Shown here piece by piece: positions 27,278 through 46,877 of a stretch of 64,000 nt of DNA (positions within the stretch are counted from its first letter, which is position 1; every line of letters begins with the position of its first letter). Source of the stretch: Planctomycetia bacterium (GTDB lineage Bacteria > Planctomycetota > Planctomycetia > Pirellulales > S012-138). Below the pieces are notes generated by a model. It had not been told where the DNA came from. It was given only the letters and a program-made list of their open reading frames with translations, and ran no database searches. The stretch spans positions 4,924-68,923 of the forward strand of contig JACOUI010000261.1 of the NCBI GenBank assembly GCA_016177915.1. Reading direction: 5' to 3'. Position numbers and translations under genes: made by a program.

Positions 27278-27283
27278 GCAACG

Positions 27284-29272
27284 GTGAACCAGGACAGCGC
27301 CATGATTAGCATCGAGCTACAGGTTGCGCAAGACCACATCGAGTCCTTAGCGAAAGTTCGCAACCCACTCCTCGCCGTCGAAGAACTGATTTGGAATGGC
27401 CTGGACGCCGATGCAAGCAAGATCGAGGTGGACCTCGAATTTGGAAAACTGGGTGGCTTGGAACGAGTGGTCGTAAGAGACGACGGCACCGGCATTCCAA
27501 GGCCACTTTGTGACCGTGCCTTTGGAAAGCTCGGTGGTTCACCAAAGCTCGACGTCAGGCGAACGCCGGCTGGAAGGGTGCCTCACGGCAAGAGCGGAAA
27601 GGGGAGGTTCCGCGCCTTTGGTGTTGGGGGAACCGTCACGTGGATCAGCCGCTACGGCGCGAACGGAGTCGTCAAACAGTTTACGATCCGTGGCGTACGC
27701 GCCGTGCTTCGCCGTTTCGAGATTGGTGACGAGACTGACACCCTGGGCGACGAAACAGGGGTCGAGGTCAGGATTGAAGACATCGAACAAAACTTCGCAG
27801 CTCTTACTGACGCCCAAGCGGCCGCCGCTGAGCTATCCCGGCGCTTGGCCTTGTACCTGAAGCAATATCCGGGCATCAGGATCCTCTACGAGGGACGGCC
27901 TGTTGACCCGTCGATCGACGAGGATCTCACGGCCAACTATGACCTCACGTTGATTGACAACGAAGGACAGCCGGTTCCCGCCGAACTTACGGTCATCGAG
28001 TGGAAGCGGCCGACCGAGCGGTCGTTGTACCTCTGTGATGAAAGCGGATTCACTCTTGACGAGCGAGCCCCAGGCATCCAAGCCCCAGGCTTCCATTTCA
28101 CGGCCTACTTGAAGTCCACGCTTATCACGCGACTGGTTGAGGAAAACGCATTTGCCGTTGAGGAAATGCATCCCGTCGTCGAGAGCGTTCTTGAGTCGGC
28201 GAAGGATGCACTTCGCCGACATTTTCGGTCGCGTGAAGCAACCAGGGCCAGCGACCTCGTCCGGCAGTGGCAAGAGGACCGGATTTATCCATACGAGACT
28301 GCCGCTGTTGACCCAATTACTCAGGCAGAGAAAGAAGTGTTCAATGTCTGCGCCGTGAAGGTGCATGAGTACCTGCCAGGCTTTGAGAAATCAGAGGCGC
28401 AGAACAAGCGATTGACGTTTCGCTTGATCCGCGAGGCGCTGGAATCCAATCCGCGCAGCCTCCAGACGATCCTGCAGCAGCTTTTGGACCTGCCGCAGGA
28501 CCAACAGAACGACCTCGCCGCAATTCTCGAGCGAACCACACTGGCTTCGATCATCAACGCCGCCAAGACCATTGTGGCACGTTTGGATTTTCTCGGCAGT
28601 CTCGACTCACTCCTCTTCGGCGACTTGAAAACCAAACTGCTGGAGCGCCAGCAACTTCACAGAATTCTCGTTCAAGAATTGTGGCTGTTCGGCGACCAAT
28701 ACTCTCTCGGCATCGACGACCAGTCGCTCAAGAGTCTCTTGGACGTGCACATCGAGATCTTAGAACGCACCATCTTGGCTCCGGACAATCAGCCTGTAAC
28801 CGACCTGGAGGGCAAGGACCGCATTGTCGACATGATGCTTCACCGCCGCTACCCGCAGTTCCTACCGGGAACCTTTGAGCACCTTGTTGTAGAACTCAAG
28901 CGGCCCTCATGCACAATCGGCCAGAAGGAGATCGGGCAGATCGAGAGGTATGCGTTCGCTGTGGCCGACGATGAACGGTTCGATAAATCACGAACGAGGT
29001 GGACATTCTTGCTTCTGGGCAACGACCTGGATAAGTTTGCGGAGAACAAGTGTCGAGTTCACGGTCGGGAGTTCGGCCACATTCATCAATCTGAAGAAGG
29101 CTCGGTCAATATTTTCGTACGAAAGTGGGCGACGATCATCGAACACGCGAAGTGGCGCTACGAATTCTTCCGCGACAAGCTGGAGCTGCAGGTAAGCTCG
29201 GCAGACGGCCTGCAGTACTTGCGCTCACGATACCCGGAGTTTCTGCCCACGGACCACACATCCGAGCCTTAG
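27284..29272 (+). CDS. GHKL (Bergerat-fold, MORC/Hsp90-like) ATPase with C-terminal PD-(D/E)xK-like motif
   Basis: N box EELIWNGLDA, G1 VRDDGTGI, G2 GKSGKGRFRAFGVGG. C-terminus IVDMML...HLVVELKRP...EIGQIERY. Starts 7 nt after hsdS (GTG 27284 or ATG 27302). Confidence 0.8.
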   Translation: MNQDSAMISIELQVAQDHIESLAKVRNPLLAVEELIWNGLDADASKIEVDLEFGKLGGLERVVVRDDGTGIPRPLCDRAFGKLGGSPKLDVRRTPAGRVPHGKSGKGRFRAFGVGGTVTWISRYGANGVVKQFTIRGVRAVLRRFEIGDETDTLGDETGVEVRIEDIEQNFAALTDAQAAAAELSRRLALYLKQYPGIRILYEGRPVDPSIDEDLTANYDLTLIDNEGQPVPAELTVIEWKRPTERSLYLCDESGFTLDERAPGIQAPGFHFTAYLKSTLITRLVEENAFAVEEMHPVVESVLESAKDALRRHFRSREATRASDLVRQWQEDRIYPYETAAVDPITQAEKEVFNVCAVKVHEYLPGFEKSEAQNKRLTFRLIREALESNPRSLQTILQQLLDLPQDQQNDLAAILERTTLASIINAAKTIVARLDFLGSLDSLLFGDLKTKLLERQQLHRILVQELWLFGDQYSLGIDDQSLKSLLDVHIEILERTILAPDNQPVTDLEGKDRIVDMMLHRRYPQFLPGTFEHLVVELKRPSCTIGQKEIGQIERYAFAVADDERFDKSRTRWTFLLLGNDLDKFAENKCRVHGREFGHIHQSEEGSVNIFVRKWATIIEHAKWRYEFFRDKLELQVSSADGLQYLRSRYPEFLPTDHTSEP

Positions 29273-29459: not shown

Positions 29460-30500
29460 ATGGTCAATCTTACGCGCGCTAGCCGCGAACTTTTCTCCCG
29501 CACGCCCGACGAGCAGTTCGAAACGCTCGCCGAGCTGCACCAGCATTGCCTGGACCAGAAGAACCGCGCCGTCCGCATCAAGGAGCCGGCCGCGACGTTC
29601 ATCCCGACCGTCCGCGACGAGAAGCTGGCCCTGAAGATCGACGGCCGCCCGGCCTACGAACTCACCGACTGGTCGTTCTCGCAGCTCTGCGGCTTCGCGC
29701 GGGTTGCGAAGGACACCGTCAACCGCCTGCACCCCAGCACCGCGGCCGACGTCCTGTCGCAAACGCTCGTCTTCGACGACGAGGACGAAACGGAGTTTCA
29801 GGCGCTCGTGCTCGACGATCGCGTCGTGCGGGCACTCAACGGCGGGCAATACAAGCGGCTGTGGAACGCGGACCTGACGGCGATGCTCCTGGAGTACGCC
29901 GTGGACTTCACGCCGCCGCAAAAGGGCTTCAACGGCGCCACCGGACTCTACGCGGGCGAGCAGGACCTGTTCTGCTTCATGATCGACCCGACCGGCTGGG
30001 CCGAGATCGGCGGCGAGGCCTTCGCACCGGGCTTTTTCGTCTGGAACAGCGAGGTCGGCCGCCGCAGCGTGGGCCTGACCACGTTCTGGTTTCAGAAGGT
30101 GTGCTGCAACCACATCGTGTGGGACGCCACGGAGATCGTCGAGATCACGCGGCGGCACACCGGCCGCGTCCGCGACGCCCTCACGGAGATCCGCCAGGAG
30201 ATTAGCGAGCTTGTCGCCCGGCGCGACCAGCGCCGCGACGGTTTCGCACGTGTCATCGCCAAGGCGATGAACACGACCTACGGCCAGGACGCCGAGGAAG
30301 TCCAAAAGCTGCTGACCAAGGCCGGCATCGGCAGGGCCTTGGCCGAGCGGGCGATCAAATGGGCGCCCGACTACGGCGGCTTCACCATTTGGGGCGTCGT
30401 CAACGCCCTGACCCGCCTGACGAGCGAGGCCAGGTTTGCCGGCAACCGCGTCGAGGCCGACCAGAAGGCCGCGTCGCTCTTGCAGCTTGTGGCCGCGTGA
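29460..30500 (+). CDS. DUF932-family protein (common on conjugative/integrative elements)
   Basis: YELTDWSFSQLCGFA..., GLYAGEQDLFCFMIDP, GFFVWNSEVGRRS, FWFQKVCCNHIVWD match my memory of DUF932 blocks. Confidence 0.65.
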   Translation: MVNLTRASRELFSRTPDEQFETLAELHQHCLDQKNRAVRIKEPAATFIPTVRDEKLALKIDGRPAYELTDWSFSQLCGFARVAKDTVNRLHPSTAADVLSQTLVFDDEDETEFQALVLDDRVVRALNGGQYKRLWNADLTAMLLEYAVDFTPPQKGFNGATGLYAGEQDLFCFMIDPTGWAEIGGEAFAPGFFVWNSEVGRRSVGLTTFWFQKVCCNHIVWDATEIVEITRRHTGRVRDALTEIRQEISELVARRDQRRDGFARVIAKAMNTTYGQDAEEVQKLLTKAGIGRALAERAIKWAPDYGGFTIWGVVNALTRLTSEARFAGNRVEADQKAASLLQLVAA

Positions 30501-30534
30501 CTCAGCCCGCTCCCCTCTCTCAGGAGTCTTGCCG

Positions 30535-30921
30535 ATGACACTCCGCTACCAGTGCGACAAATGTGGCGCGTGCTGCCAAGGTCACCTGATCGTCGAAGCC
30601 CAGCTCTTGGATGTGATTCGCGAGCCGCGGCTGATTCAGTCTGATTCCCACTACGCCGGGCTGCCGATCGATGAAGCGATGACGCTGCTGGAAAACCCGC
30701 ACCGTTGTCTCATCATCGCGTGCGGGACGCCTCGGCCCTGCGCCTTTCTCGGCGCCGACAAGTGCTGCACGATTTACCCGACACGGCCGAACGTCTGCGT
30801 TGCTCTTGAAGCTGGAGACGAGCAGTGCCAGTACGCCCGAGGCGCCGCCGGACTGCCGCCGCTTCAGCCGATCGAACTGCCGGCCGTGGTGCCCGATTTG
30901 ACTCCGCCCGGCTCTTCCTGA
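30535..30921 (+). CDS. YkgJ/UPF0153-type Cys-cluster (zinc/iron-chelating) protein
   Basis: MTLRYQCDKCGACCQGH...C..LGADKCCTIYPTRPNVC. ATG 30535 follows AGGAG. Confidence 0.7.
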   Translation: MTLRYQCDKCGACCQGHLIVEAQLLDVIREPRLIQSDSHYAGLPIDEAMTLLENPHRCLIIACGTPRPCAFLGADKCCTIYPTRPNVCVALEAGDEQCQYARGAAGLPPLQPIELPAVVPDLTPPGSS

Positions 30922-31433: not shown

Positions 31434-31617
31434 TCGCCCAGGCTGTTCATTTCGCAGAAAAATCCACCGCCCCTTCCCTAATAGTGTTTAGAGCCGACGG
31501 CTCCTGTCCCCGGCACTTTGAGGCTTGTCGGGCGCACAGGACAGCTACCACGGGACGGACGTGCGTAGGCTGACCTGTGTGCCTGTAAACGACCTAGCCA
31601 AAGTGACGGGGGAACCA

Positions 31618-31974
31618 ATGACCCACGACGACTTCATTGCCCAAATCGACCGCTTCCTCGACGGCGATCTCGATGTGATCGAGTGGCACGAGTTCCGCGA
31701 CCACATGAACACGTGTCGTGACTGCTCCCAACGGTTAGTGCAGCGACGCATCGAACTACTCGAAGACCGCGGCATTTTGGTGGCGCTCCTGGAACCGCAA
31801 CCCCAGCGATGCATCACGGCCGGAACGCTCACACGATGGCTCAAGGGCGAAATCCCCATGGAGCTTTCGCCGCGCGTCTCCAACCACCTGCGTAACTGTC
31901 GGTACTGCCACGACCATGCTGCGGAATTGGCAGCCCGACTGAAAAAGGACAACTACGCTAACGCCAACAGGTGA
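31618..31974 (+). CDS. tandem zf-HC2 (ZAS, anti-sigma-type) protein, copy A
   Basis: Two HxxxCxxC motifs in anti-sigma context: FLDGDLDVIEWHEFRDHMNTCRDCSQRL and WLKGEIPMELSPRVSNHLRNCRYCHDHAAEL. No TM segment. Confidence 0.75.
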   Translation: MTHDDFIAQIDRFLDGDLDVIEWHEFRDHMNTCRDCSQRLVQRRIELLEDRGILVALLEPQPQRCITAGTLTRWLKGEIPMELSPRVSNHLRNCRYCHDHAAELAARLKKDNYANANR

Positions 31975-32059: not shown

Positions 32060-33058
32060 ATGGACGACCCCCTCGAACCTTTCCGCGAGCACGTACTCGG
32101 TCGCACCGACAAACTCTTGCAGTCACCAATCTTCGAGCAAATCGATTGGATGGCACAAAACGTCTGTGACGAACCCTCTCGGAGCCAAGCCCACTGGATC
32201 GGGCCCGGGGACTTGGTGCAGAACCTTCTCTCGTGTCCCATCTCCAAAGACAAAGAAAAGACGAGCATCCACATTCTCCTTGACTCCTTTGCCGGAAAGC
32301 CCGTTTCCACTCCTCAGATTCTTGGCTTTCTTCACATTCAATTTTACCTGCACCACGACGCGATGGGGGGACGGAAAGGCACGAGGCGCCGGAAGGCGAA
32401 TACTCTCAGGGTCTTGGATCTTCCTCCTTCGGTTTTTGGTGGCGATTTGAATGCGCTCTTCAGCCACTATGGTCCGGTTGCCCACGCCGCCGTCGAGGTC
32501 GACGGTCTTTTGGCGACCGGCCGTGTCAAGATGAAGACTGCTGCCGCCGCGAGGCGGGCCTGTGCGGGTCTGGATGGCTACGATCTTCATGGCCACAAAC
32601 TAAGCGTTCGGCCCTGGGAGGACCAAGTCTCCAACGTCCCGCTCACTGCCGCCAATGTTCCTTCCGCATCCCACTCCCCCGACATTCCTCCAGCACTGTG
32701 CGAGAATATCGAAGCCCGCGCGCGCCAGGACGCAGCCAAGTTACTTTCCGCCCAGGACCAATATCCTCTGCCGACAGAGGCGATCCGTTTGTGGCTCGCG
32801 GCAGTTGCCGCCAAGGGCGAGAAGTGGCCGAATGCTCTTCGGAAGGCGTTGCGGCAGTCCCATTTGATCCCCCGCGCCAGCTGGGGCCAGGCACAGAAAC
32901 TTGGAAAGGCCATCGAACTGCGCATCGCCGCCCTTTTCCGGCCCATTATCAAGGACCACGGACTCTACTTGGCGCAGCCTGATTGCTTCCAACCGGCGGT
33001 CGCTCTTTACGCGCAAAAGCTATTACAATCGCTCGAACTTCCGGAAACCGAAGAATGA
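32060..33058 (+). CDS. hypothetical protein with central RRM-like domain
   Basis: aa 116-186 LRVLDLPPSVFGGDLNALFSHYGPVAHAAVEVDG..GRVKMKTAAAARRACAGLDGYDLHGHKLSVRPW fit a beta-alpha-beta-beta-alpha-beta RRM pattern (RNP2-like LRVLDL, degenerate RNP1). Alternative start ATG 32363. Confidence 0.5.
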   Translation: MDDPLEPFREHVLGRTDKLLQSPIFEQIDWMAQNVCDEPSRSQAHWIGPGDLVQNLLSCPISKDKEKTSIHILLDSFAGKPVSTPQILGFLHIQFYLHHDAMGGRKGTRRRKANTLRVLDLPPSVFGGDLNALFSHYGPVAHAAVEVDGLLATGRVKMKTAAAARRACAGLDGYDLHGHKLSVRPWEDQVSNVPLTAANVPSASHSPDIPPALCENIEARARQDAAKLLSAQDQYPLPTEAIRLWLAAVAAKGEKWPNALRKALRQSHLIPRASWGQAQKLGKAIELRIAALFRPIIKDHGLYLAQPDCFQPAVALYAQKLLQSLELPETEE

Positions 33059-33483
33059 CCCACGACGACTTCATTGCCCAAATCGACCGCTTCCTCGACG
33101 GCGATCTCGATGTGATCGAGTGGCACGAGTTCCGCGACCACATGAAAACGTGTCGTGAGTGCTCGCAACGGTTAGTGCAGCGGCGCATCGACCTGCTTGA
33201 CGAAGGCGGCCTTTTGGCGGCGCTCCTAGAGCCGCAACCCCAGCGATGCATCACGGCCGGAACGCTCACACGATGGCTCAAGGGCGAAATCCCCATGGAG
33301 CTTTCGCCGCGCGTCTCCAACCACCTGCGTAACTGTCGGTACTGCCACGACCATGCCGCCGAACTGGCAACCCGACTTTACCGACATGAAAATGACGTTC
33401 ACGCGGCCGAACCCCCGTATCGCATCCGTACTGCTGCTTTAGACGGCCCGATGGGCGAAGATGACGGTGACCAAGACGTCTGA
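33055..33483 (+). CDS. tandem zf-HC2 (ZAS, anti-sigma-type) protein, copy B
   Basis: ATGA overlap with the upstream stop. Same two HxxxCxxC motifs (DHMKTCRECS, NHLRNCRYCH). Longer acidic C-terminal tail. Confidence 0.75.
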   Translation: MTHDDFIAQIDRFLDGDLDVIEWHEFRDHMKTCRECSQRLVQRRIDLLDEGGLLAALLEPQPQRCITAGTLTRWLKGEIPMELSPRVSNHLRNCRYCHDHAAELATRLYRHENDVHAAEPPYRIRTAALDGPMGEDDGDQDV

Positions 33484-33543: not shown

Positions 33544-36500
33544 ATGTCCGAACCTACATGGACCACATACGATTCCTTTCAAAAGTGGGCTGGCGCCCAC
33601 CGAGTCGGCGTTTGGGCAACGAACATGAAGGCCCACTATGACGCCGGCGACCGTGCCGCCGCCAGCAGCTGGTGCGAACGACTCAGCGCCACCCTACAGA
33701 ATCACAAGATCCTGGCGGCGTTCCCGCCGTCGGTTTTGTACCTGTTGAGGTCGGCACTGCTGCGTGTAGGCACCGGCGCCCGACCCATTCTCACCCACGA
33801 TTTGCAGACCGCTGCGACCGCCATCGACGATAGCCTTCGTAGACTGACAGGAGGCAGCGACGGCGAGCCGCAATCGGCGTGGCCGCCGCTTGTCGCCGCA
33901 CAGGTGCTCGCGCATAACATTCTTTCAGGAACAGCGCCTGCCACTGCCATTCTCCGTCTCGGCCGCGCCTGCAGCCCGTCAGGTTCATGGAGGCGCACTC
34001 ACTGGAGCCGTATGCTACATGACGGTCCCGCGCTACAGTGTTGTGAGGATTTGCTGCCCGTCCTCCGATCACTAACCAGCACCACGTACGACCGCCTGGA
34101 AGCTATTGGCAAGCTGTCCGGCGTGATGGCTAACGTGCCGTATCGCAACCAAATCACCAACGCGCTCTATCACGCTGTCTTGTGTTGGCCGCTGCTCGTC
34201 GTGCTAGTTGAGCGCCCAGACCGGCCCCGTCTTATTAGCGGCGCCCTCAGTTTGCCCGTCATCATCGACGTGCGTTTCGGCCCGGCACCTTCCGATAAGA
34301 CTACCAACGATTCTGCTCCTTCCACCAGAGACCGTTGCATCGTACTCCCTACGGACGACGCCCTCAACGCGTTTCAACTGCATTTGCGAAAGGCGATGGA
34401 CGCTGCCAAAGACTTGTGGATGTCCAAACACCGCAACTACGGCCCGTTTTGCAAGGCCGTAGAGCGCGCCGACGTCGTGTTCGATTTCACAATCGCACGT
34501 TACGTCGACCCCGAAGCTTCAATTGAGGGCGGCAGTGCGGAGGCGTACTTCGCACAGGCTGTCCTCCACAGACTATTGGGCCGTCTCGGAACTCTTTCGA
34601 GCGTGGCCAGCGGTCACATTGATCGCGTCGCTGTATTGGATAACCTGCCAAAGGAACTTACTCCCAAAGGTCTCAAGCGCACAATGCAACTCGCCGTCCG
34701 CGGCTACGCCAACAAAAAGGAAACAGGGCCCCTGGAGGTTATCCCAGGAACGCGCAGCAACGCTGGCGAGAAGCGCCTTTTGTGGACGGATGTTTGGACC
34801 GGGCGCAAGGCCCTCCAATGGCGCCACGTACTATGGCAGCAGTCCACTGTCCCTGACTACCGAGATCAAGTCGGCTCGCTCTTCCGCCGGTACGGACACC
34901 TCTACCTCAGAAAAGCAGGGGGCAGCAAGGACAAACTCGAACTGGTTCACGCGAGCCACTTCTTCGAGCGCATCGTTTTACATCAAGCTACCGAACGCGA
35001 GCTGCTTAAGGACCAGCTGTGTGAACGCGGAATCAAGGACAACGCTGCACGGAAGATCGTCCGACAGTTCCACCCAGAACGCGTGCGCCTCCAACTGGCT
35101 GTTTACGACTGGCTGACCCAGAATCGCGATGCACGCGTCGCCCGCAACGGCGCCGCCTGGCTAGCAAAAGCCATCCGAGAGAATTTTCAGCCACCGACAG
35201 GGTTTCAGAGTGCGCCTGGCGCGCTGTCTACCTACCAATCGCCCACAGCCGAAGTCATCTCCGTTCCAACGCCGCAGCACATGGCGGACGTGATGCAGGT
35301 CGCGGGCTGGCGACGGCATCACTACATCCGCTGTCCCGACCTCATGTGGGCGTTCCATGAGCAATATAATGAAGCTCTTCCCGGCCTACTGCCTGCCGAA
35401 CCCGGATCAGCCGTCGACAGGGTCCTTGCCCAACTACAGGACAACACAGCACCCGTCCTTGAACTTCGCGCCGCGCCGCAAACGGTCCTTTCTGCGCTGT
35501 GGCACATCAACTATGAGCTCCGCGACCGCAGTGTAAAAGCCTTTTCCTGGGCCTGCCTCCGCCTTGCCAGAGACGAGATGGATGCTCGATTCTGGCAGAC
35601 GTTTTGGCGCGTGCTTGGCGCCCCTCTCGAAGTTGTCCAACAGTTCCTGCTCACTCCCACACCCGCCGCTGCCGCCACTCTCCTAGTCGAAGCCCTCAGC
35701 CACTTCTCACCAGCGCCAGCAGCTCCGGGCTACAGGGCACCAGAAGTAATTCTACTAATCGGAACCGACCGCTTCGCCGAGAGCTTGGCCAAGCACACCG
35801 GCCCGCTCAGCAGCCGCCCTTTGGCCCTTCCGTTCGTTCTCAAAGAACTTCGCTCCCATGGCGTTCCCTACTACACGCCGCTCGAGCGTCATCTTGGCCG
35901 CACCCGAATTATCTGTGTTCCGGAAGACCAACAGCTCACGCTCAATGCCGCACCCCCAGCTTGTGAGATCTCACAAGCTGACCGACTCTTCTTGCGCGCG
36001 GTACGTACCTTCCGCTGGGGCTTCACACAGCAGATGGCATCAATGATGCTCCAAGTCCTGGCGGACGATCAGCAACTACGTGCAGCGTGGCCGCGGCACT
36101 ACGCTTTGCGCGAGAACCTCAGTCGGCTGCGAGAAGAACGGCTTCTCCGATACGGCCAAGGGGTCTACCATTTGCCCCCCGACGTCCGCGATGCCCTAGG
36201 ACCGCCCCACGCCCCCCGCGACGACGCGCGACTCCATCTTGCGGCAGGCGTCGCCATTGCTCCCTACACGGCTCGTCGACCGGTCCCCTCGCTCGCCTTC
36301 GACTTGGCCTTCCTCCCTGAGAATGTCCACGAGGCCTCGCACCACTTTAGGACCGCCTTTTCCCTAGCTCAGGGCGTCGACGAACGTCTTGCAGACCACG
36401 CTCGAAACAACCTTCAGCATGTCTGTCGCTTCGTCGAGCTGCGCGACTGGGGCCTACAATCAGAGCTAACCAAGGGAAAGGACGCATTGCTCGACGCATG

Positions 36501-37245
36501 GGAACTCGGCAATGAACTTCTCGCAACACATGACCAGCACGGGACGCCGTGCCATCCCGCCCGTGTTCTCCAAGTTGCCCGAGCCGGAATGTCGTACCTC
36601 AAACAACTTCGTGGACCGGACCAAGACAACGACGCCCACGACGTTCGCTGTCGCATTGACGGCCTCTTCCGCCAAGCGCAAGCCGCCTGCGACCGGCCGG
36701 AATGGTCATCCGACCGAAATTCGAACCTTTTAGCCGTCCTCTCAACCTGGGCAACGTACTCGATGCAGAATTCCCCGCAACTCGTCTCGCAGATCCGTCA
36801 ACTCAATGACGATATCTGGAACCTCTTGAAGTCCAACACGCCCGCTTCCCTTGTATGGGGGGAGTGGTTCGAACTCGTGGCCGATCGTGAGACGAACCAC
36901 GCCGATGCCGCTGCGATCTACGCCCTGGCAATCGAAAACGTCCCCGCTTGGCACCAAAACTGGATCAAGGGTGTCGGAGCCGAAGTCCTCGGCGGCCTAA
37001 TCAACCCTCCAATCTGCAAAAAACTAACCGCGAAACCACCCGACCAAATCGCCCACATCCTCAAGAAAGCGGCGCTCGGCCTCAAGGATCTACAAACCGG
37101 GCACGCCAGCGACGTCGTTCACGATCGATGGCGTAGCGGCGCGGCTTTTTTCTTCTCCCATTGGAGCGCAAACACCAACGTTCAGCCCTTTCTCGCCCCC
37201 TATCGCTTTCTCCAGAGAAGCCAGCCGCGACCACGGTCCCCCTGA
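33544..37245 (+). CDS. 1233-aa protein of unknown function with Lon-like Ser/Lys signature and helical C-terminal third
   Basis: Uninterrupted ORF with ordinary composition. SIEGGSAEAYFAQAVLHRLLG (Ser331) and GGSKDKLELVHAS (Lys462/464) resemble Lon S16 GPSAG / GGxKEK blocks. No Walker A seen. Confidence 0.75.
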   Translation: MSEPTWTTYDSFQKWAGAHRVGVWATNMKAHYDAGDRAAASSWCERLSATLQNHKILAAFPPSVLYLLRSALLRVGTGARPILTHDLQTAATAIDDSLRRLTGGSDGEPQSAWPPLVAAQVLAHNILSGTAPATAILRLGRACSPSGSWRRTHWSRMLHDGPALQCCEDLLPVLRSLTSTTYDRLEAIGKLSGVMANVPYRNQITNALYHAVLCWPLLVVLVERPDRPRLISGALSLPVIIDVRFGPAPSDKTTNDSAPSTRDRCIVLPTDDALNAFQLHLRKAMDAAKDLWMSKHRNYGPFCKAVERADVVFDFTIARYVDPEASIEGGSAEAYFAQAVLHRLLGRLGTLSSVASGHIDRVAVLDNLPKELTPKGLKRTMQLAVRGYANKKETGPLEVIPGTRSNAGEKRLLWTDVWTGRKALQWRHVLWQQSTVPDYRDQVGSLFRRYGHLYLRKAGGSKDKLELVHASHFFERIVLHQATERELLKDQLCERGIKDNAARKIVRQFHPERVRLQLAVYDWLTQNRDARVARNGAAWLAKAIRENFQPPTGFQSAPGALSTYQSPTAEVISVPTPQHMADVMQVAGWRRHHYIRCPDLMWAFHEQYNEALPGLLPAEPGSAVDRVLAQLQDNTAPVLELRAAPQTVLSALWHINYELRDRSVKAFSWACLRLARDEMDARFWQTFWRVLGAPLEVVQQFLLTPTPAAAATLLVEALSHFSPAPAAPGYRAPEVILLIGTDRFAESLAKHTGPLSSRPLALPFVLKELRSHGVPYYTPLERHLGRTRIICVPEDQQLTLNAAPPACEISQADRLFLRAVRTFRWGFTQQMASMMLQVLADDQQLRAAWPRHYALRENLSRLREERLLRYGQGVYHLPPDVRDALGPPHAPRDDARLHLAAGVAIAPYTARRPVPSLAFDLAFLPENVHEASHHFRTAFSLAQGVDERLADHARNNLQHVCRFVELRDWGLQSELTKGKDALLDAWELGNELLATHDQHGTPCHPARVLQVARAGMSYLKQLRGPDQDNDAHDVRCRIDGLFRQAQAACDRPEWSSDRNSNLLAVLSTWATYSMQNSPQLVSQIRQLNDDIWNLLKSNTPASLVWGEWFELVADRETNHADAAAIYALAIENVPAWHQNWIKGVGAEVLGGLINPPICKKLTAKPPDQIAHILKKAALGLKDLQTGHASDVVHDRWRSGAAFFFSHWSANTNVQPFLAPYRFLQRSQPRPRSP

Positions 37246-37489
37246 CCCTGCCGCTCCACGTCGCCGCGTCTTTCCTAGAACGGCGATCCCTCCACGTCCG
37301 TCCGACTCAAAACGGTGCACAGCTGCACCGCACCCCGGCCCTACCCTCTTGCCGCGCAGCATTCCGTCCAAAAGTCTAATCCCCCGCCAATTCCGACTTT
37401 CCCGAAAAACGTCAAACCAATTCCCTATTCCTTTAGCCCCCACACCGTCGTCAATCCCGCGAGTCTCGACACGCCCCACACCAAAAACC

Positions 37490-38425
37490 ATGAGTACAAC
37501 ACGCCCGATCTCTAAACGGCCAAACCGCGCCATCGAGATTTCCACGTACGACGACCTTGACCGTTTCCTCCGCCGCTTCGCCGACGGGCATTTCAACCTT
37601 CTGATGATCATCGGCCGTCCCGGCCTACAAAAGAGCCGAGCCGTACGCGCCGTCGTGCCCGAGGACGCCGTCTGCTGGATCGAAGGTAACGCCACGGCGT
37701 TTGGTGCTTACCAAAAAATCTTTGAGCACCGCCACAAGCCCATCATCGTCGTCGACGACGTCGACTCACTCTACGCCGATCGAAGCGCGGTTCGCCTTTT
37801 GAAATGCCTCTGCCAGACCGAGCATCTCAAACGCCTCGCATGGCACTCAAATGCCGCCGCGCTCGACACCCTCGGAATCCCACGCGAATTCACAACGGCT
37901 GCGCGAGTGGCCATCATCGCCAATCAGTGGAAAACCCTCAACCCAAACGTCGCCGCCCTCGAGGATCGCGGCCACCTCCTGTTTTTCAACCCTTCACCAC
38001 TTGAGGTCCACACCCGCACGGCCGAGTGGTTCTGGGACCAGAAAGTCTTCGATTTTTTTTCCGCCCACCTCCATCTAATCCCAGACATCTCCATGCGCCA
38101 CTACTTTCGTGCCGCCGAATTAAAGCGCGCCGGCCTCAACTGGAAGCACCTTGTTCTTCAGCAGTTCTTGCCGGACCACAATACCCTGTTGGTGGCTCAG
38201 TTGAAGCTCGATCCCACCTACCAAACCGAACAACAACGAGTTGAAGCCTTCAAAGCGAAGACGCGATGCTGCAGGGCAACGTATTTCAACCATTCCCGTC
38301 GCTTGGCTCCCCAGATTCCCGTCGCCCCGATCCGGCTAACAAGTCCGCCGCCGGCCAGCCGCCTCGATTGGTCACAATTCCTGAAAGCCCTCCCCAATTC
38401 ACGGCCGCGCGCCCAAACTGGCTAG
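37490..38425 (+). CDS. AAA (AAA_22/TniB-like) ATPase
   Basis: Walker A-like IIGRPGLQKSRAV, Walker B PIIVVDDVDSLY. ATG 37490 chosen because the upstream ORF part is Pro-rich, low-complexity sequence. Confidence 0.65.
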   Translation: MSTTRPISKRPNRAIEISTYDDLDRFLRRFADGHFNLLMIIGRPGLQKSRAVRAVVPEDAVCWIEGNATAFGAYQKIFEHRHKPIIVVDDVDSLYADRSAVRLLKCLCQTEHLKRLAWHSNAAALDTLGIPREFTTAARVAIIANQWKTLNPNVAALEDRGHLLFFNPSPLEVHTRTAEWFWDQKVFDFFSAHLHLIPDISMRHYFRAAELKRAGLNWKHLVLQQFLPDHNTLLVAQLKLDPTYQTEQQRVEAFKAKTRCCRATYFNHSRRLAPQIPVAPIRLTSPPPASRLDWSQFLKALPNSRPRAQTG

Positions 38426-38876: not shown

Positions 38877-39659
38877 ATGCCTCGCCGCATTGCATGGCTG
38901 AACGAAAAGGGCGGATCGGGCAAGAGCACCAGCGCCTTGAACCTGGCCGCGAATCTGGCGTCCCGGTTCGGCAAAAAGATCCTTCTAGTGGACGCCGACC
39001 ATCAGGCCAACACGACCATCGTCCTCAGCCGCGGCCGACCGCTTGAAGTCACGCTCACGCACGTCATGCTCGGCAAAGCGCCCATCGAGCAGGCGATCGT
39101 CCCCACGCGCTACCACAACCTGGACTTGGTTCCGGCCGACGCCTCGCTGTCCGACGTGAACGTGGCCCTGGCCGATAGCGGCAGCCCCTTGGGGCTGGGC
39201 AGGGAATGGCGGCTCAAGCGGACCCTGGAAAAGATCGACGAAGCCTACGACTTCGTGATCCTCGACACCGGCCCGCAGCGCACCGTCCTCAACCTGAACG
39301 TTCTCAACTACGCCCACGAGGTCTTTGTGCCCGTCGATCCGGGCTACTGGAGCATCCTGGGCGTGCGGCACCTCGAAGACCTGATCGCCCAGGTGCGGCA
39401 GCACATGGACCACAAGGCCCTGCGAATCGGCGGCGTGCTGCTCACGAAAATGCAATACACCAACGTGGCCGACGAGGTTGAAAAGCAACTTCGCCATTAT
39501 CTCGGCAACCGCGTCTTCCACACGACGATCCCGCTCAACGTCAAGGTCGAGGAAGCCCACAGCCGCGGCCTGGCCGTCCTCGACTACGCCCCCGACAGTG
39601 CCGGCGCCAAGGCGTACCTGGCCTTTACCAAGGAGGTGCTCGCCAATGGCCAAGCCTAA
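38877..39659 (+). CDS. parA: ParA-family partition ATPase
   Basis: IAWLNEKGGSGKSTSALNLAANLA (deviant Walker A), LLVDADHQANTT, VILDTGP. Confidence 0.9.
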   Translation: MPRRIAWLNEKGGSGKSTSALNLAANLASRFGKKILLVDADHQANTTIVLSRGRPLEVTLTHVMLGKAPIEQAIVPTRYHNLDLVPADASLSDVNVALADSGSPLGLGREWRLKRTLEKIDEAYDFVILDTGPQRTVLNLNVLNYAHEVFVPVDPGYWSILGVRHLEDLIAQVRQHMDHKALRIGGVLLTKMQYTNVADEVEKQLRHYLGNRVFHTTIPLNVKVEEAHSRGLAVLDYAPDSAGAKAYLAFTKEVLANGQA

Positions 39660-40256: not shown

Positions 40257-41735
40257 ATGCAGCGACCCGATAGGGGAGACAACCTACAAGAGACGCTTCA
40301 GGCGCCGCCGCCGAAGCTTGTCAAAGTTGAGGCCAACCTGCTTCGGCTGCCGCTCTTTGCCCTGTCCACGAAGGGCCTCAGGAACCTCGACGGCCTGGAG
40401 ATCAACAGCACCCTGACGCGGCAGGGGAGAACCCGCCAGTTCACCCTGCGCGTGACCCGCAACACGGCCACGCCGTACCCTGGCCCGCTGGCCCGCGCCG
40501 CCCACCTGGCTTTTCTGAGCATCCTCACCGAGCGCGGCTTTCCCTGCGAGAACCCGATCACCTGGAATTGGCGCGACCTGTGCCGGCGAATCGGCATCGC
40601 TTACTCGGGCCGCACGGCCCAGCACCTGAAGAGGGCCATCCAATCCACGGCCGGCCTGATGATCCACAGCGAGGACGCGCTGTATTCGAAGGCGTCCGGC
40701 CAGCCGATCCGAACGCCGCGCGGCGTCGTGCTCCACCTGTACGAGACCGTGGCCTTCGTCCACGACCCGCTGCCCGACGGCCGCGAGGCCGACGCCAACT
40801 ACCTGTGGCTCAGCCCGTGGTACCTGGAAAACCTGAACGCCTACTTCACGGCCCCGCTAGACCACGACTTCTGGCGGTTCCTCGACCGCCGCAGCACGAT
40901 TGCCAGCCGGCTGTACGAATTCCTGCTGCTCAATTTTTACAGCGGCACCGACCTGCTCCGCCTGAACTACCCGACGCTAGCGCAGTTCATGCCCCTGCGG
41001 CCGAAGCGGCATTTTTCTGAGGCCCAGCGACAGCTCGACCCGGCCTTTCGGCTTCTAGCGGCGCAAAAGGTTTTGCGAGACGCAGTCTGGCAGCGCAAGC
41101 CGGCGGTTGTCGCCGAACTTCGTCTCCGGCCGGGCGAGCGACTCGCAACCCGCAGCCGGCTCCTTCCCGGCGGCGCAATCCAAGAGCAGTTCGCCAACGC
41201 ATTCCAAGTCCGCGAGCTCCGCAACCTCCAGCCGCCGGAGTGGGGGATTGTGCGCGACTTCTACGAACGCTGGGCGCCGGAGGTCGAGCATCGCCCTACG
41301 CCGAAGGAATTGGCCTTGGCCCGCCTGCTGATCGATGAACATGGCCAGGCCAAGGCCAAGAGTGTCGTGCCGGTCGTTGTCGCCAGTCTTCGCCAGCGCT
41401 GGCCCGAGGCCAAGACGTTCGGGGCAATCGTCCCGTACCTGCCGGACGCGATCCGCGAAGTCGAAGGAACGGAACAGCGAACTCGGGATCGTCGCAGGAA
41501 TGCACGTCGCATGCGCGAAGAAGAGGAGGCCCGTTCGCGCGAAAAGGAACGGCAAACGGTATTTCGTCTCCGCTGGCAGCCCAGGTGGCAAGCACTGTCG
41601 GAGGCCGACCGTCACGAGATCGAGTCGGCTGTTCTGAAAGGAAATCCGCACCTGCGCAAGGCCCCCGGCATCCTTGAATCCCTGTGCCTACGTGAACTCG
41701 CCCAGCGGAGTGAGGCAGATTCTGCCGAAAACTAG
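40257..41735 (+). CDS. repA: plasmid replication initiator, RepA (RPA family)-like
   Basis: VEANLLRLPLFALSTKG...FTLRVTRNTATPYPGPLARAAHLAFLSILTERGF...WLSPWYLENL resembles Replication initiator protein A. Adjacent iterons support the call. Start uncertain. Confidence 0.65.
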   Translation: MQRPDRGDNLQETLQAPPPKLVKVEANLLRLPLFALSTKGLRNLDGLEINSTLTRQGRTRQFTLRVTRNTATPYPGPLARAAHLAFLSILTERGFPCENPITWNWRDLCRRIGIAYSGRTAQHLKRAIQSTAGLMIHSEDALYSKASGQPIRTPRGVVLHLYETVAFVHDPLPDGREADANYLWLSPWYLENLNAYFTAPLDHDFWRFLDRRSTIASRLYEFLLLNFYSGTDLLRLNYPTLAQFMPLRPKRHFSEAQRQLDPAFRLLAAQKVLRDAVWQRKPAVVAELRLRPGERLATRSRLLPGGAIQEQFANAFQVRELRNLQPPEWGIVRDFYERWAPEVEHRPTPKELALARLLIDEHGQAKAKSVVPVVVASLRQRWPEAKTFGAIVPYLPDAIREVEGTEQRTRDRRRNARRMREEEEARSREKERQTVFRLRWQPRWQALSEADRHEIESAVLKGNPHLRKAPGILESLCLRELAQRSEADSAEN

Positions 41736-41746
41736 CGTTGCCAACG

Positions 41747-43141
41747 ATGGGCAATACGGGAGGGAACAGCACGGAACGGGAACGGCCAAAAAACGGCCAG
41801 CAGAGCCACGGCCACGGCGTCGCCCTTCCGCGCATGCGCGACGTTCAGGCCGACTGTGGCCTTTTTCCGTCGCATTCGCGCCGGCTGCGGGGTAGCGAGA
41901 CGCTACCCAAAAAGGCCACAGTCGCCCTGAGGGCGACGCCGAACGGCTACCCGGACAACAGCACTTCCGCTGACTGCCCGAAGGCAGACAGCGAAACAGC
42001 CAACGGCACAACCGTCAACCGCTTAACCGCGAACGGCCCGCCGACGGCGACAACGGCCCCGAAAGCGCGCCGGATTTGCACGGCTTGGGACCTGCCCAGT
42101 CTTATTCGGCCGATGCCGCTGCGGCGCAACAGGCGAGTCCGCAAGCCGAACATTTTGCGACATTACCCGGCGCTCGTCGAATACGTCTTCAACAGCCGCT
42201 ACGCGACGGCTTCGCAGGTCGAGCGGCGGTTTCCGGAGTGGCTGACGTCCGACCGCACGGCCCGCTGGCAAATGACGAGCTTGGTCGAGCTGCGCCTTTT
42301 GGGAATCGCGTCGGTCCGGTCGACGTCGCCGAACTTTCCGTTCGTCTACTTCGCCACGCCGAGGGGAGTGCGGTTGATCCGCGACACGTACGCCAGGCTC
42401 GGCGTTACGTGGAAAGCGTCAGCCACGGAGGAAAGCCGGCTCCGCGGTCAGGCGATGGACACGGTGCTGCACGAACTGCTCGTCACGGAATTCGAACTGG
42501 CCGTCTGGCAAACGGTCCGCAGTAAGGAAGACCTGGAGCTCGTGTTCACGGAACGCCGCTACTTCCGCCGCGACCGCCAATTGAGATTCGGACACGAGGG
42601 CAGGGTACACCGCATCGCGCCGGATGCTGGTTTTCTGGTCACCTGGCCGCGGGAGGGAACGGCTGATGGAACGACGCAAAATAAAGCTTTTGCGACAGAC
42701 CGCGACGGCCTGCTGCATTTCGTTGAGCTTGACAACGGCACGATGAGCCCTCAGCGCATCCGCGAAAAGTTCCAGGCCTACGCGCGCTGGGCGCGATCAG
42801 AGTCGGCCGAGCGATACCTGCGCGACGTGTACGACCGCGCCGGACTGCCGGGCCGCCGTCCCAACTTCCGCCTGCTCATAATTGCCCACGACAAGCTGCA
42901 CCCCGGCCGCGACGACGCCCGGCTGCAGGTGCTGCTCGCTCAAGCTCTCACACTGCCGCTTGACGTGCGGAGAAAAGTGTGGCTTACCGCGGCGCAGCGG
43001 CTCCGTGAGCAGCAGCACTCCCCTGCCCCGCTCGCCGCGTCGATTTGGCTCCACGCCCGCGACGCCGGGCCCGCTCGGGACGACTTGCACCACGAGCGCG
43101 CAGTCCTCGCGGCAATCCCTCTCAAATCGCTGTACAGCTAA
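41747..43141 (+). CDS. replication-relaxation family protein, paralogue 1
   Basis: wHTH-like RHYPALVEYVFNSRYATASQVERRF...LVELRLLG, HELLVTEFELAVW, FVELDNGTMS. Shares the block TAWDLPSLIRP with the paralogue at 55525-56616. Start uncertain (TTG 41738 / ATG 41747). Confidence 0.65.
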   Translation: MGNTGGNSTERERPKNGQQSHGHGVALPRMRDVQADCGLFPSHSRRLRGSETLPKKATVALRATPNGYPDNSTSADCPKADSETANGTTVNRLTANGPPTATTAPKARRICTAWDLPSLIRPMPLRRNRRVRKPNILRHYPALVEYVFNSRYATASQVERRFPEWLTSDRTARWQMTSLVELRLLGIASVRSTSPNFPFVYFATPRGVRLIRDTYARLGVTWKASATEESRLRGQAMDTVLHELLVTEFELAVWQTVRSKEDLELVFTERRYFRRDRQLRFGHEGRVHRIAPDAGFLVTWPREGTADGTTQNKAFATDRDGLLHFVELDNGTMSPQRIREKFQAYARWARSESAERYLRDVYDRAGLPGRRPNFRLLIIAHDKLHPGRDDARLQVLLAQALTLPLDVRRKVWLTAAQRLREQQHSPAPLAASIWLHARDAGPARDDLHHERAVLAAIPLKSLYS

Positions 43142-43933: not shown

Positions 43934-44278
43934 ATGTCGCCACGCGCCACGCGCTTGCTCGTCTTCGCCGTGATCTTCACCGTGTTTGCCGGGCTTGCGG
44001 GCTTCGTATCGGCCCTGCTCTGCTTCATTCCCGCGCCCTATCTCTTCCCTCTGGCGTACCACCTCTCCCATCGGGTCGCCTGGGACCTCACCGCGAACTT
44101 CGTTTCGCGACTGCAGTGCCCGCGCTGCGCCTTTCAACTCCCCGCCGTCGGCGTTTGGACGGTGGGTTCCTACACGGACCATCACGAGCAGAACATCTAC
44201 AACGTCCGCAGCCCCATCGACGGCAAGCACATCGGATGGATCGATTGCCCGCAGTGCGGCTCAACGATCGTCCTTTAA
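43934..44278 (+). CDS. hypothetical membrane protein with zinc-ribbon (CPRC...CPQC)
   Basis: ATG 43934 after AAGGGAG. TM helices LLVFAVIFTVFAGLAGFVSALLCFI, then CPRC...CPQC. Confidence 0.5.
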   Translation: MSPRATRLLVFAVIFTVFAGLAGFVSALLCFIPAPYLFPLAYHLSHRVAWDLTANFVSRLQCPRCAFQLPAVGVWTVGSYTDHHEQNIYNVRSPIDGKHIGWIDCPQCGSTIVL

Positions 44279-44294
44279 GCGAGCGCACAGCAAC

Positions 44295-46877
44295 ATGGTC
44301 AAGCGGCCGAATAGCCTGTGGGAGCAGTACCAAGGCAAAGCCCAAGCGGTGATCCGGTGCGGCTGCGGCTTATGGCCCGTCCAGCCGCACCCTTGCGCTC
44401 TCGAACCGCCCTGCTGGCCCTTTGACCGCACTTCCGTCAACGTGTGGGACTGTCTTGTCAACGACTGGGAAGGCCCCTGGGATGGACGCACAGCAGTTCA
44501 GAGCCTCTTTGTCCCAGAGCCGCCTGTTGTCCACCAGCGCGGCCAGCCCGTCGTGCTGCCTCCCCTCCCCTACCAAGTGGAGACGGACCTTGTAGCGATC
44601 ACCATCGAACAGTTCTTTGCCGAAGACCATTCAAGCATTCCGCTGGCGGAACAGTTTCTGCTGTCCTTGATGAACCTTGATCGGCCCGTTGCCTTTGAGT
44701 TGTTCGGCGTCGGCCGCACAGACTACTCCGAACCGTTCGTGCAGACCCGGTTTGTCGCCCATCGACGACATGCCGATCAGATCCAGCGCCAGTTGCTGCA
44801 GCATTACCCCAACTCTGCGATTGCGCTCGACGATTCCGCCGATACCCTCGACTTCCGCCAATTCCTGCAGTTGCTGGCCGACGACGAGGGATTCGGAGGA
44901 CCGTTGCTCCTTCACGCCGGCTGCTGTTTTCCGCTTCGCACGTACACGCGCCTGGAGCCGGATCCCCTCGGCGTCGCCATCGCCGCGATGGACCACCTGG
45001 ACGAAGGCAAATGGGCCTTCCTCCAAATCCTCTTTGAACCAGCTCGGGAACCGTGGGCTCAAACGATCGATCAGGCCCTGGCTCACCCCTACAACCCGAA
45101 CGAGTACCTTCTTGAGTCCAGTGAGCTGCGGCTGCTGCGCCAAAAGCTGGAATCGCCCCTATTTGCCGTCTCTCCGCGACTCATGGCCAGCACGAAGGCG
45201 GACTTGCGGGCGCTCGCGAGCTGGGCCGAACAGTTCACGTCTCCGCCGCAAGGCATGGCGATCCCCGAGGATTGGCCGGAAGGCGAGATGCCCGACGACG
45301 ACGAAGCATTTGCCTTCTGCTACGACCTGTGCGGTCGCTGCACGCACCGCCCGGGAATGCTGCTCAACTTGCAGGAACTAGCCAGCCTTGTGCACCTGCC
45401 ATCCGAGTCCGTCGCCACCGAACGGCTCCGCCGAGTTAAGGCGCGCACAAGACCGGCCGTGCCAGTGCCCGAGGAGGACGAGTCTATCGTCTTGGGCGAA
45501 AACGTACACCGCGGCCGGACGCGCCGCGCCAAGATTTCCCCGCAGCTCCGACCCCGCCACTGCTACATCGCCGGCGCATCAGGGACGGGCAAATCCACGC
45601 TGCTCCTGAACATGATTCTCCAGGACATCGAGGCCGGCCGGGGCGTCGGCCTGCTCGACCCGCACGGCGACCTTGTCAACGACGTGCTGCGGCGCATTCC
45701 CGACCACCGCGTCGATGACGTGATCCTCTTCGATCCGGCCGACGACGAGTACCCGTTGGCGCTGAACATCCTGGAGGCCAAGGACGCGAGCGAACGCGAG
45801 CGGATCGTCCAGGAGACCGTCATGGCCCTGGAACGGTACTTTCCAGCGTCGTGGGGACCGCGGCTGGAGCGCATCCTGATGTTCGCAATCCACTCCGTAC
45901 TCCAGGCCCTGCCGGGCGCCACGTTGGCCGACGTCGAGCGAATTCTCACGGACGACGAGTTCCGCACCGACGTTGTCTCGCGCACCACCGACCCGCGCTT
46001 CCTGGACTTCTGGGAAAAGCAGTTTCGCTTCTTCCCCAAGAACGCCGTTGATCCCGTGCTTAACAAGCTGTCGCCGTTCTTGCTCTCCCCTACCGTGCGG
46101 AACATCATTTGCCAGCGCCGGTCGGCCATCGACTTCGACCGGCTGCTGAACGGCGGCAAGATTTTCCTGGCGAACCTGTCGACCGGCTTGTTGACGGAGA
46201 AGATCGCTGGCACGTTCGGCAGCTTCTTGGTGACCAAGATCGTCAACGCCGCCTTCCGCCGAGCGCGGTTGCCCGAGGAGGAGCGACGTCCCTGGCATCT
46301 TTACGTCGACGAGTTTCAGGCTTTCATGAACCTGTCGGTTGGCTTCGACCGCATTTTGGCCGAAGCCCGTAAGTACAGGCTTCTGTTGACCGTCGCCAAC
46401 CAGTACGTCGGGCAGCTTTCGCCGGCCGTCCGACAAGCCGTCTTTGGAAACGTCGCCGTCTTCGTGATCTTCCGCCTGGGCGTTGACGACGCCGGGATCG
46501 TGGCGAAGGAGTTGGGCCCGTTCACGGCCGACGAGATTCTCAACCTTGAGCTGGGCGAGGCTATCGTCCGCGCTGGGGCGTCTTCCCAATCCTTCAACGC
46601 GACGACGTTTCCCCCGCCAGCGCTCCCGCCCGCCAATCCCGCACCGCAGATCCGCGACCAATCCCGAAAGCGGTACTCCCGGCCGAGGGGCGAGGTAGAG
46701 GATGACCTCATCGCCCCACAGCCGGATGCTGACTCCAGCATTGAAAGAGCTAAGAACACCGGCAAATCAACACGTCCGCCGCGTACGTCGTCGAAGCACC
46801 GCCGGCATCGCCGGGCGGCCCAGAATCCGGATCTGACTGAGCCGATTGATCCGCGCGAAGACGAGTTGGAACCCTAA
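44295..46877 (+). CDS. TraD/VirD4/FtsK-HerA-like coupling (DNA-translocating) ATPase
   Basis: Walker A IAGASGTGKSTLLLNMI, LLDPHGDL, Walker B WHLYVDEFQAF, ARKYRLLLTVANQ. ATG 44295 chosen because the ORF-track start 43986 overlaps the upstream gene. Confidence 0.8.
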   Translation: MVKRPNSLWEQYQGKAQAVIRCGCGLWPVQPHPCALEPPCWPFDRTSVNVWDCLVNDWEGPWDGRTAVQSLFVPEPPVVHQRGQPVVLPPLPYQVETDLVAITIEQFFAEDHSSIPLAEQFLLSLMNLDRPVAFELFGVGRTDYSEPFVQTRFVAHRRHADQIQRQLLQHYPNSAIALDDSADTLDFRQFLQLLADDEGFGGPLLLHAGCCFPLRTYTRLEPDPLGVAIAAMDHLDEGKWAFLQILFEPAREPWAQTIDQALAHPYNPNEYLLESSELRLLRQKLESPLFAVSPRLMASTKADLRALASWAEQFTSPPQGMAIPEDWPEGEMPDDDEAFAFCYDLCGRCTHRPGMLLNLQELASLVHLPSESVATERLRRVKARTRPAVPVPEEDESIVLGENVHRGRTRRAKISPQLRPRHCYIAGASGTGKSTLLLNMILQDIEAGRGVGLLDPHGDLVNDVLRRIPDHRVDDVILFDPADDEYPLALNILEAKDASERERIVQETVMALERYFPASWGPRLERILMFAIHSVLQALPGATLADVERILTDDEFRTDVVSRTTDPRFLDFWEKQFRFFPKNAVDPVLNKLSPFLLSPTVRNIICQRRSAIDFDRLLNGGKIFLANLSTGLLTEKIAGTFGSFLVTKIVNAAFRRARLPEEERRPWHLYVDEFQAFMNLSVGFDRILAEARKYRLLLTVANQYVGQLSPAVRQAVFGNVAVFVIFRLGVDDAGIVAKELGPFTADEILNLELGEAIVRAGASSQSFNATTFPPPALPPANPAPQIRDQSRKRYSRPRGEVEDDLIAPQPDADSSIERAKNTGKSTRPPRTSSKHRRHRRAAQNPDLTEPIDPREDELEP

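Follow-up and report, generated by a model that had tools for sequence, protein, structure and literature searches.

A divergent, insertion-bearing Lon-type domain in a family of STAND-like TPR proteins, a candidate sensor-gated protease with regulatory neighbours

CalpL, a Lon protease that has no ATPase, combines a catalytic dyad formed by S152 and K193 with a SAVED sensor; it is activated as a filament and cleaves the anti-sigma factor CalpT, thereby freeing CalpS (bioRxiv 10.1101/2024.05.08.593097). A system similar to CalpL is made up of TPR-CHAT, Csx30 and a sigma factor (bioRxiv 10.1101/2024.05.08.593097). Here we describe a gene from a 64,000-nucleotide stretch of Planctomycetia bacterium DNA (GenBank assembly GCA_016177915.1, contig JACOUI010000261.1, positions 4,924 to 68,923; hereafter the window) that encodes a protein of 1,233 residues with a very divergent Lon-type domain. 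We put a probability of roughly 0.6 on the reading that, by analogy with the systems above, this protein is a sensor-gated regulatory Lon protease that would act on a regulator encoded by a neighbouring gene. As in CalpL, an ATPase-less Lon-type Ser–Lys protease lies N-terminally in a sensor protein, and the genes of the family lie in immune contexts near others that are anti-sigma-like or sigma-like; activation by oligomerization, shown for CalpL, is inferred for this family. Unlike in CalpL, the sensor is a Walker-A-less STAND-like module with a winged helix and TPR repeats rather than SAVED, no link to cyclic oligoadenylates was seen, the chain has roughly double the length and this window has no detectable sigma factor. 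Pfam gave no SAVED or CARF match in the protein, and no CRISPR-Cas genes were seen among the scanned neighbours. Craspase (type III-E gRAMP, the TPR-CHAT protein Csx29, Csx30 and CASP-sigma) resembles the present system in that a TPR-bearing protease is tied to a sigma factor and a cleavable partner, and differs from it in being RNA-guided and in using a caspase-like CHAT protease instead of Lon.

The Lon-type (S16-like) proteolytic domain occupies residues ~213–592 (34180..35319, + strand) and carries two insertions. The first-pass annotation had noticed Ser and Lys blocks about 130 residues apart, had allowed either that a large insertion splits a Lon domain or that the resemblance is fortuitous, and had proposed profile–profile alignment and structure prediction as checks. 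A profile built from 70 family sequences and compared with the sequences in the PDB matched the protease domains of Archaeoglobus fulgidus LonB (1z0e; E = 0.0027) and Methanocaldococcus jannaschii LonB (1xhk; E = 0.012). The LonB alignment places the family serine on GDSAS, TG on MTG, the lysine on GGVTQK and VLP on VIIP, with the final strand–helix also aligned. Profile–profile alignment by hhalign to the Escherichia coli Lon P domain (E = 3.9e-4) brought the catalytic residues into register, pairing S331 with S679, S356-G357 with T704-G705 and K464 with K722. With three sequences, the profile found no match in the PDB and hhalign against E. coli Lon was insignificant (probability 0.5%); both tests became informative only once 70 sequences were used. 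Structure prediction recovered the Lon fold. In an AlphaFold2 (AF2) model of residues 205–600, with a predicted local distance difference test score (pLDDT) of 81 and a predicted template-modelling score (pTM) of 0.80, the best 50 Foldseek matches in the PDB were all Lon proteolytic domains (probability 0.97–1.00), among them human LONP1, Meiothermus LonA and E. coli Lon, with template-modelling (TM) scores of up to 0.56 when normalized to 1rr9. The E. coli Lon P domain was also found with the full-length model, at rank 31. CalpL structures were absent from the sequence matches and from the best 50 structural matches listed. Residue conservation, spacing, the LonB profile match, Foldseek and hhalign thus bear out a Lon domain split by a large insertion, and we consider it very probable that this is a real Lon-type protease domain, probably an active one. 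Scans of the protein with Pfam, NCBIfam and PADLOC returned nothing but a spurious sub-threshold HeLo match. Since the curated models are silent on this very divergent branch, we file the domain as Lon-fold/S16-like rather than as a member of a current Pfam family.

Conservation was counted in a 151-sequence family alignment. The predicted nucleophile S331 (AGT, 34534..34536, + strand) lies in the segment SIEGGSAEAYFAQAVLHRLLGRLGTLSSVASGHID, which begins at residue 326 (nt 34519); it corresponds to S679 of E. coli Lon and to Ser509 of A. fulgidus LonB, in GDSAS, and is kept in all 137 homologues (137/137). S356-G357 (34609..34614, + strand), 25 residues past the serine, corresponds to T704-G705 of Lon (MTGEI), with Thr or Ser at position 356 in 135 of 139 homologues and the glycine kept in 136 of 139. 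The predicted general base is K464 (AAA, 34933..34935, + strand), equivalent to K722 of E. coli Lon and Lys552 of LonB by conservation and in the alignment registers, and kept in 141/142. It lies in RKAGGSKDKLELVHASHFFERIVL (residues 456–479, nt 34909–34980), where the block RKAGGSKDKLELV (34909–34947) is found 131–133 residues from S331. We propose S331, S/T356 and K464 as a conserved catalytic triad, the geometry of the S331–K464 dyad being predicted from homology.

The first-pass annotation had located S331, K462 (AAG, 34927–34929) and the motif VRGYANKKE (from residue 385) correctly; its choice of lysine did not hold. Position 462 is variable among homologues (P, E, A, R, S or D), and K462 was rejected as the catalytic residue on that ground. 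K722 is the second lysine of E. coli GGLKEK, so the Lon-equivalent residue of SKDK is K464. The alternative offered near residue 390 (K391/K392) was rejected as well, being situated within the first insertion and missing from ~98% of homologues. The annotation had suggested examining S331 together with K462 or K391 for conservation, and had treated a lack of conservation of S331/K462 as grounds for dropping the idea. The serine proved invariant, K462 variable and K391 an insertion residue; read literally, that test would have led to the finding being wrongly discarded, because the true lysine is K464.

The spacing of the motifs is explained by the insertion. S331 stands 131 residues from K462 and 133 from K464, compared with a Ser–Lys distance of 43 in E. 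coli Lon (S679–K722, counted on a sequence matching PDB 1rr9 over its full length). The first part of this interval is fixed: the serine and the threonine are 25 residues apart in 126 of 136 members, exactly as between S679 and T704 of E. coli Lon. The second part, from Thr to Lys, is 18 residues long in E. coli Lon and ranges from 20 to 108 in the family (mode 29), and this protein has the longest. In two relatives of ~31% identity the Ser–Lys spacing is near canonical (47–51 residues), and both retain the Ser block (DRSAEAYFAQ and DKSMGAYLAQ), the TG-x-I block and the lysine in (P/V)xxK(L/I)RYVF. The non-canonical 133-residue spacing therefore results from a ~95-residue insertion in a loop that joins the TGxI strand to the GGxxK helix and whose length varies throughout the family. 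This insertion 1 (residues 360–455; 34621..34908, + strand) is helical, has pLDDT values below 50 for residues 385–439 and also occurs in P0014 and P0057, the closest relatives. Insertion 2 (residues ~488–570; 35005..35253, + strand), also helical, follows the 'VLH/VLP' strand and is private to this protein. It is 36% identical (pairwise E = 7e-17) to residues 330–416 of a 'replication initiator protein A' (RepA) of planctomycete plasmids, namely pPL62-1 and a plasmid of Aquisphaera giovannonii. In a tblastn search of the protein against plasmids this segment was the sole match, and tblastn against phage records gave no match to the protein. A RepA-derived module thus appears, on sequence comparison, to have been spliced into the protease domain. 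Relative to canonical Lon proteins (LonA of E. coli and Meiothermus, human LONP1, archaeal LonB; MEROPS S16), the domain has the same proteolytic fold, Ser and Lys positions, Thr-Gly pair 25 residues past the serine, and GGxxK and 'VLP/VIIP' blocks; it differs in the absence of the AAA+ unfoldase and the Lon N-domain, in falling below the Pfam Lon_C reporting level, in the Thr-to-Lys loop and, in this protein, in the second insertion after the VLP strand. The Thr-to-Lys loop tolerates insertions, and the spacing of motifs alone is not a safe criterion for Lon-like domains.

The gene is complete (33544..37245, + strand; 1,233 residues by open reading frame (ORF) and translation), and family members match its product end to end. 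The protein is identical to 'hypothetical protein HYS13_17690' of a Planctomycetia metagenome-assembled genome, which was deposited from M28 (1,206 residues). A near-invariant tryptophan, W15, present in at least 90% of 43 family members, lies upstream of M28, which places the true start upstream of the annotated one. Judged from the sequence, translation probably begins with the ATG at 33544, which would leave the public record 27 residues short (33544–33624). An AF2 model of residues 34–1233, made with a 70-sequence alignment (pLDDT 85.5, pTM 0.87), gives the domain order: helical N-domain, Lon protease, alpha/beta domain, winged helix and TPR-like solenoid. The N-terminal domain (residues 1–212, including W15; 33544..34179, + strand) is all-helical in the AF2 secondary structure. 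The central alpha/beta domain (residues ~593–801; 35320..35946, + strand) is characterized by the conserved motifs GWRxxxYxRCPD, SWxFxR..ExDxRFW, RAPDxLV and GxTRIIL, and was tentatively assigned from whole-protein matches to the NOD-like fold of STAND proteins. It is followed by a winged-helix-like module (residues ~811–880, FRxGFTxxMA ... LLxxxGxYxxP; 35974..36183, + strand), an assignment inferred from AF2 secondary structure and conservation, and by a C-terminal TPR-like alpha-solenoid (residues ~890–1225; 36211..37218, + strand) with pLDDT above 90 and TPR matches in Foldseek, which is the presumed sensor.

The first-pass annotation had seen no ATPase motif and had therefore pictured a Lon-protease-only module. 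The first part was borne out: no AAA or Lon ATPase model of Pfam or NCBIfam matched this protein, and across 120 full-length members there was no conserved Walker A, only eight sporadic, non-homologous motif matches. At the site expected for the P-loop (residues 638–659) a strand–loop–helix is present, with no conserved G, K, S or T. The module is not free-standing, since it forms the N-terminal effector of a STAND-like/TPR protein of ~1,000 residues. With the full-length model, the best Foldseek matches were human SAMD9 (E = 1.9e-4), the STAND-TPR structure 6mfv (E = 5e-4) and many TPR proteins, with Avs3 at rank 49. The layout predicted here is that of Avs and other NLR-like STAND receptors (for example Avs2, with a trypsin-like domain) and of SAMD9, in which an effector at the N terminus is followed by a winged-helix-bearing NOD-like module and by a repeat sensor at the C terminus, and Avs/NLR-like receptors, like this family, occur in defence islands. 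They differ from this family in that it has no Walker A and an effector of the Lon type. We are somewhat more inclined than not to see in the family a STAND-like receptor architecture without Walker A, and a STAND-like scaffold with a lost nucleotide switch is, on the model, the likely reason for the missing ATPase motif. Nucleotide-driven switching is unlikely given the lack of Walker A in 120 members.

An exhaustive profile search retrieved 395 representative clusters at E<=1e-3, 249 of them at E<=1e-30, and we take the family to comprise at least 395 clusters. Members are mostly 1,000–1,150 residues long (about 1,050), are 22–35% identical overall and vary freely at the positions flanking the catalytic Ser, Thr and Lys. 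A word-indexed homologue search found three proteins only, also when repeated with a 101-sequence profile, and a search for related loci with three sequences found three genomes. Pfam, NCBIfam and PADLOC have no model for the family (this protein and 43 members scanned); all members with a source name are called 'hypothetical protein', save for one that is named after its fused cold-shock domains. Clusters have few members (mostly one to three) and a patchy distribution, in environmental Planctomycetota, Acidobacteriota and Sphingomonas. Two members are extended C-terminally to the TPR region: P0050 (1,699 residues) by four cold-shock (CSD) nucleic-acid-binding domains and P0145 (1,355 residues) by a Ppx/GppA phosphatase domain. 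These additions fit an exchange of modules at the sensor end or output end.

Statements on the neighbourhood rest on about ten distinct loci. In all of those examined, a gene lies directly upstream on the same strand, overlapping the family gene by up to 14 nt or lying at most 96 nt from it, and its stop codon often overlaps the start codon of the family gene. In the window this gene is ZAS2 (33055..33483, + strand), which ends 60 nt upstream of the Lon gene and encodes a 142-residue zf-HC2/anti-sigma-like protein (Pfam zf-HC2, 29 bits, cutoff 22.2), the candidate partner or substrate; its NCBIfam matches are to anti-sigma models only, for example RsrA at 8e-8. Further upstream, its paralogue ZAS1 (118 residues; 31618..31974, + strand) precedes an ORF of 332 residues (32060..33058, + strand) with an RRM_1 match (26 bits, cutoff 20.7, residues 118–181) and a weak match to an NCBIfam 'RNA-binding regulator'. 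This ORF occupies the position held by a sigma-like gene in other loci, and its stop codon is overlapped by the ATG of ZAS2. ZAS1 and ZAS2 carry tandem H/C-x-CxxC motifs and are encoded by a direct repeat (31617–31940 and 33054–33377) that is 94% identical at the nucleotide level over 324 nt. From these sequences it looks as if a small regulator was recently duplicated ahead of two different large genes.

At other loci the upstream protein takes different forms. An XRE-type HTH_3 protein is encoded 5 nt upstream of the family gene in L009–L011, and the partner in L015 has an H-x3-C-x2-C motif. Elsewhere it is a fast-evolving protein of 185–306 residues, itself preceded by a divergent sigma-70/extracytoplasmic function (ECF)-like gene. 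Such genes, each matched by many sigma models, are found in L001 (1475–2242), L007 (3814–4566), L005 (6532–7017) and L014 (4867–5397), at position −2 relative to the family gene or, in L005, at −3. Their matches are mainly to sigma-70/ECF models (E 7e-7 to 7e-3), and exclusively so in L007; the gene at −2 in L001 also has a weak match to the NCBIfam 'type III-E CRISPR-associated RpoE-like sigma factor' (E = 1.3e-4). On the downstream side of the window's Lon gene, an ORF of 358 residues begins after 103 nt (37349..38425, + strand; sub-threshold AAA_16, 21 bits, cutoff 32.6). In L001, L003 and L005 the family member is likewise followed by a gene of similar size (313–362 residues), with no sequence similarity detected; there may be a conserved downstream partner.

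Its gene content marks the window as a defence island carried by a conjugative or plasmid-like element, with the Lon-STAND gene as cargo. The defence genes upstream of the Lon gene span 17648–29272. They comprise a 975-residue ABC/OLD-type ATPase with a Ppl-like C terminus (17648..20578, − strand; PADLOC Ppl 2e-34, with AriA-, GajA- and PtuA-like matches), a Toprim protein (20782..21903, − strand), a complete type I restriction–modification set (HsdR 22141–24501, HsdM 24576–26129 and HsdS 25946–27277) and a 662-residue HATPase_c_3 (MORC-like) protein (27284..29272). Between these and ZAS1 lie a DUF932 protein (29460..30500) and a 161-residue ORF with a putative zinc/iron-chelating CxxCxxCC domain (30436..30921; Pfam, 33.9 bits). 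Downstream of the Lon gene we found ParA/AAA_31 (38877..39659), an unannotated 492-residue ORF (40257..41735), a Replic_Relax relaxase-like protein (41738..43141) and a 963-residue TraD/TrwB-like coupling protein, similar to type IV coupling proteins (43986..46877). Homologous loci contain DndBCDE, BrxR/WYL, HicAB, PIN and Phd/YefM genes, serine recombinases and transposases, and one family locus adjoins two-component and CheR genes.

The sensor-gated regulatory protease that we favour would unite sensor and protease in one chain and work independently of nucleotide. The TPR solenoid would bind a trigger that is probably produced by a phage or a mobile element, and ligand-driven oligomerization would then assemble or unmask the Lon active sites without ATP, comparable to Lon oligomers and CalpL filaments. 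The activated protease would make a specific cut in the regulator encoded just upstream: presumably the zf-HC2 anti-sigma-like protein (33055–33483) in the window, and elsewhere the 185–306-residue protein behind a sigma-70/ECF-like gene or the XRE-HTH protein. The cut would turn detection into a transcriptional response, as in CalpL–CalpT–CalpS and Craspase–Csx30–sigma. That the neighbour-encoded regulator is the protease substrate is a tentative proposal, which we rate at somewhat short of an even chance. More doubtful is the broader idea of a third, CRISPR-independent class of protease/anti-sigma/sigma immunity, in which a pseudo-STAND and TPR scaffold would gate Lon and the cleavage of an anti-sigma-like or HTH regulator would elicit transcriptional defence.

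A number of observations weigh against this picture. Pfam Lon_C and the NCBIfam Lon models gave no match at E<=10 in this protein, and Pfam Lon_C none at E<=0.01 in the 43 family members scanned; support for Lon at the sequence level is modest (E ~1e-3) and the Foldseek TM scores are moderate (0.3–0.56). The STAND matches have low TM scores (0.18–0.32), in a search with the whole chain rather than with the central domain alone. The sample of loci is small. The sigma-like matches in L001, L007, L005 and L014 are all below curated cut-offs, and the RpoE-based search detected no sigma factor in the 64-kb window. BLAST and phmmer revealed no conserved neighbours between the window and the homologous loci, with partners pairing only between L003 and L006 and between L001 and L007; the upstream partners are too divergent, and their multiple alignment is too noisy, to establish one family, and the zf-HC2 protein of the window is without the C-terminal beta-rich region seen in other upstream partners.

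The strongest competing explanation is a sensor-activated, non-specific abortive-infection protease that degrades many cellular or phage proteins, the upstream genes then being unrelated regulators or immunity factors. It is served equally well by the STAND-like/TPR architecture and the defence-island context, a role of this kind has been proposed for protease-bearing Avs and CHAT effectors, and it sits easily with the lack of a detected sigma factor in the window and with upstream partners that change from locus to locus (zf-HC2, HEAT, HTH or unknown), which are hard to square with a single conserved substrate. However, it leaves aside the tightly coupled same-strand upstream gene at every locus examined and the recurrence of sigma, anti-sigma and HTH signatures, and CalpL is a precedent for a specific cut. 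Moreover, ATPase-less Lon domains have no unfoldase and are therefore expected to cut exposed linkers rather than to degrade folded proteins in bulk. We consider such a non-specific protease unlikely.

Distinctly less credible is a role apart from phage or mobile-element defence, in housekeeping or developmental signalling, with the protease governing an alternative sigma factor upon an endogenous cue. The patchy distribution, small clusters, mobile elements and adjacency to restriction–modification, Dnd, BrxR and toxin–antitoxin genes argue against it, as do the fast-evolving partners and the swapped sensor ends (CSD, Ppx/GppA), all of these being typical of conflict systems; in its favour are the sigma, anti-sigma and HTH neighbours, the locus beside two-component and CheR genes and the environmental hosts. 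A domain that is Lon-like and yet serves as a non-catalytic scaffold or oligomerization module, with structural or ligand-binding Ser and Lys, would have parallels in several Lon-like domains of defence and repair proteins with non-proteolytic roles. In BrxL (BREX), RadA/Sms and ComM, as here, a Lon-related domain has been recruited into defence or DNA-transaction proteins; their Lon-like domains are thought to be non-proteolytic, BrxL and RadA are among the sequence relatives of the Lon P domain, and Pfam Lon_C is blind to the domain studied here. Those proteins retain an ATPase module, whereas this family has none and its catalytic residues are invariant. Ser, Thr and Lys are near-invariant in a family of 22–35% identity while their flanks vary, and the 25-residue Ser-to-Thr spacing is strict, as one would expect if selection maintains an active site; a scaffold role is highly improbable. 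A fortuitous resemblance to Lon, for which only the silence of Pfam Lon_C, NCBIfam and the three-sequence profile would speak, is refuted for practical purposes by the invariant residues, the LonB profile and hhalign registers and the best 50 structural matches, all of them Lon.

The components of the sensor-gated Lon protease proposed here (a Lon fold, STAND-like receptors and protease/anti-sigma logic) are known; their combination appears to be new, above all the pairing of a Lon effector with a STAND-like scaffold that lacks Walker A. No defence protein joining Lon to STAND or TPR was described in the searchable literature, where absence is not proof of novelty, and Lon is not mentioned in the main text of a 2026 systematic survey of prokaryotic STANDs. 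For at least 395 clusters of 'hypothetical proteins', the analysis provides a testable annotation with named catalytic residues (S331, S/T356 and K464). If the proposal is true, a Lon-type protease would join the known effectors of NLR/STAND-like bacterial receptors, and such a receptor could work without a nucleotide switch. The logic of a protease that cuts an anti-sigma factor, with sigma then reprogramming transcription, has so far been described only for the CRISPR-linked CalpL and Craspase; it would extend to a stand-alone sensor, and the system could be re-engineered into a ligand-gated protease.

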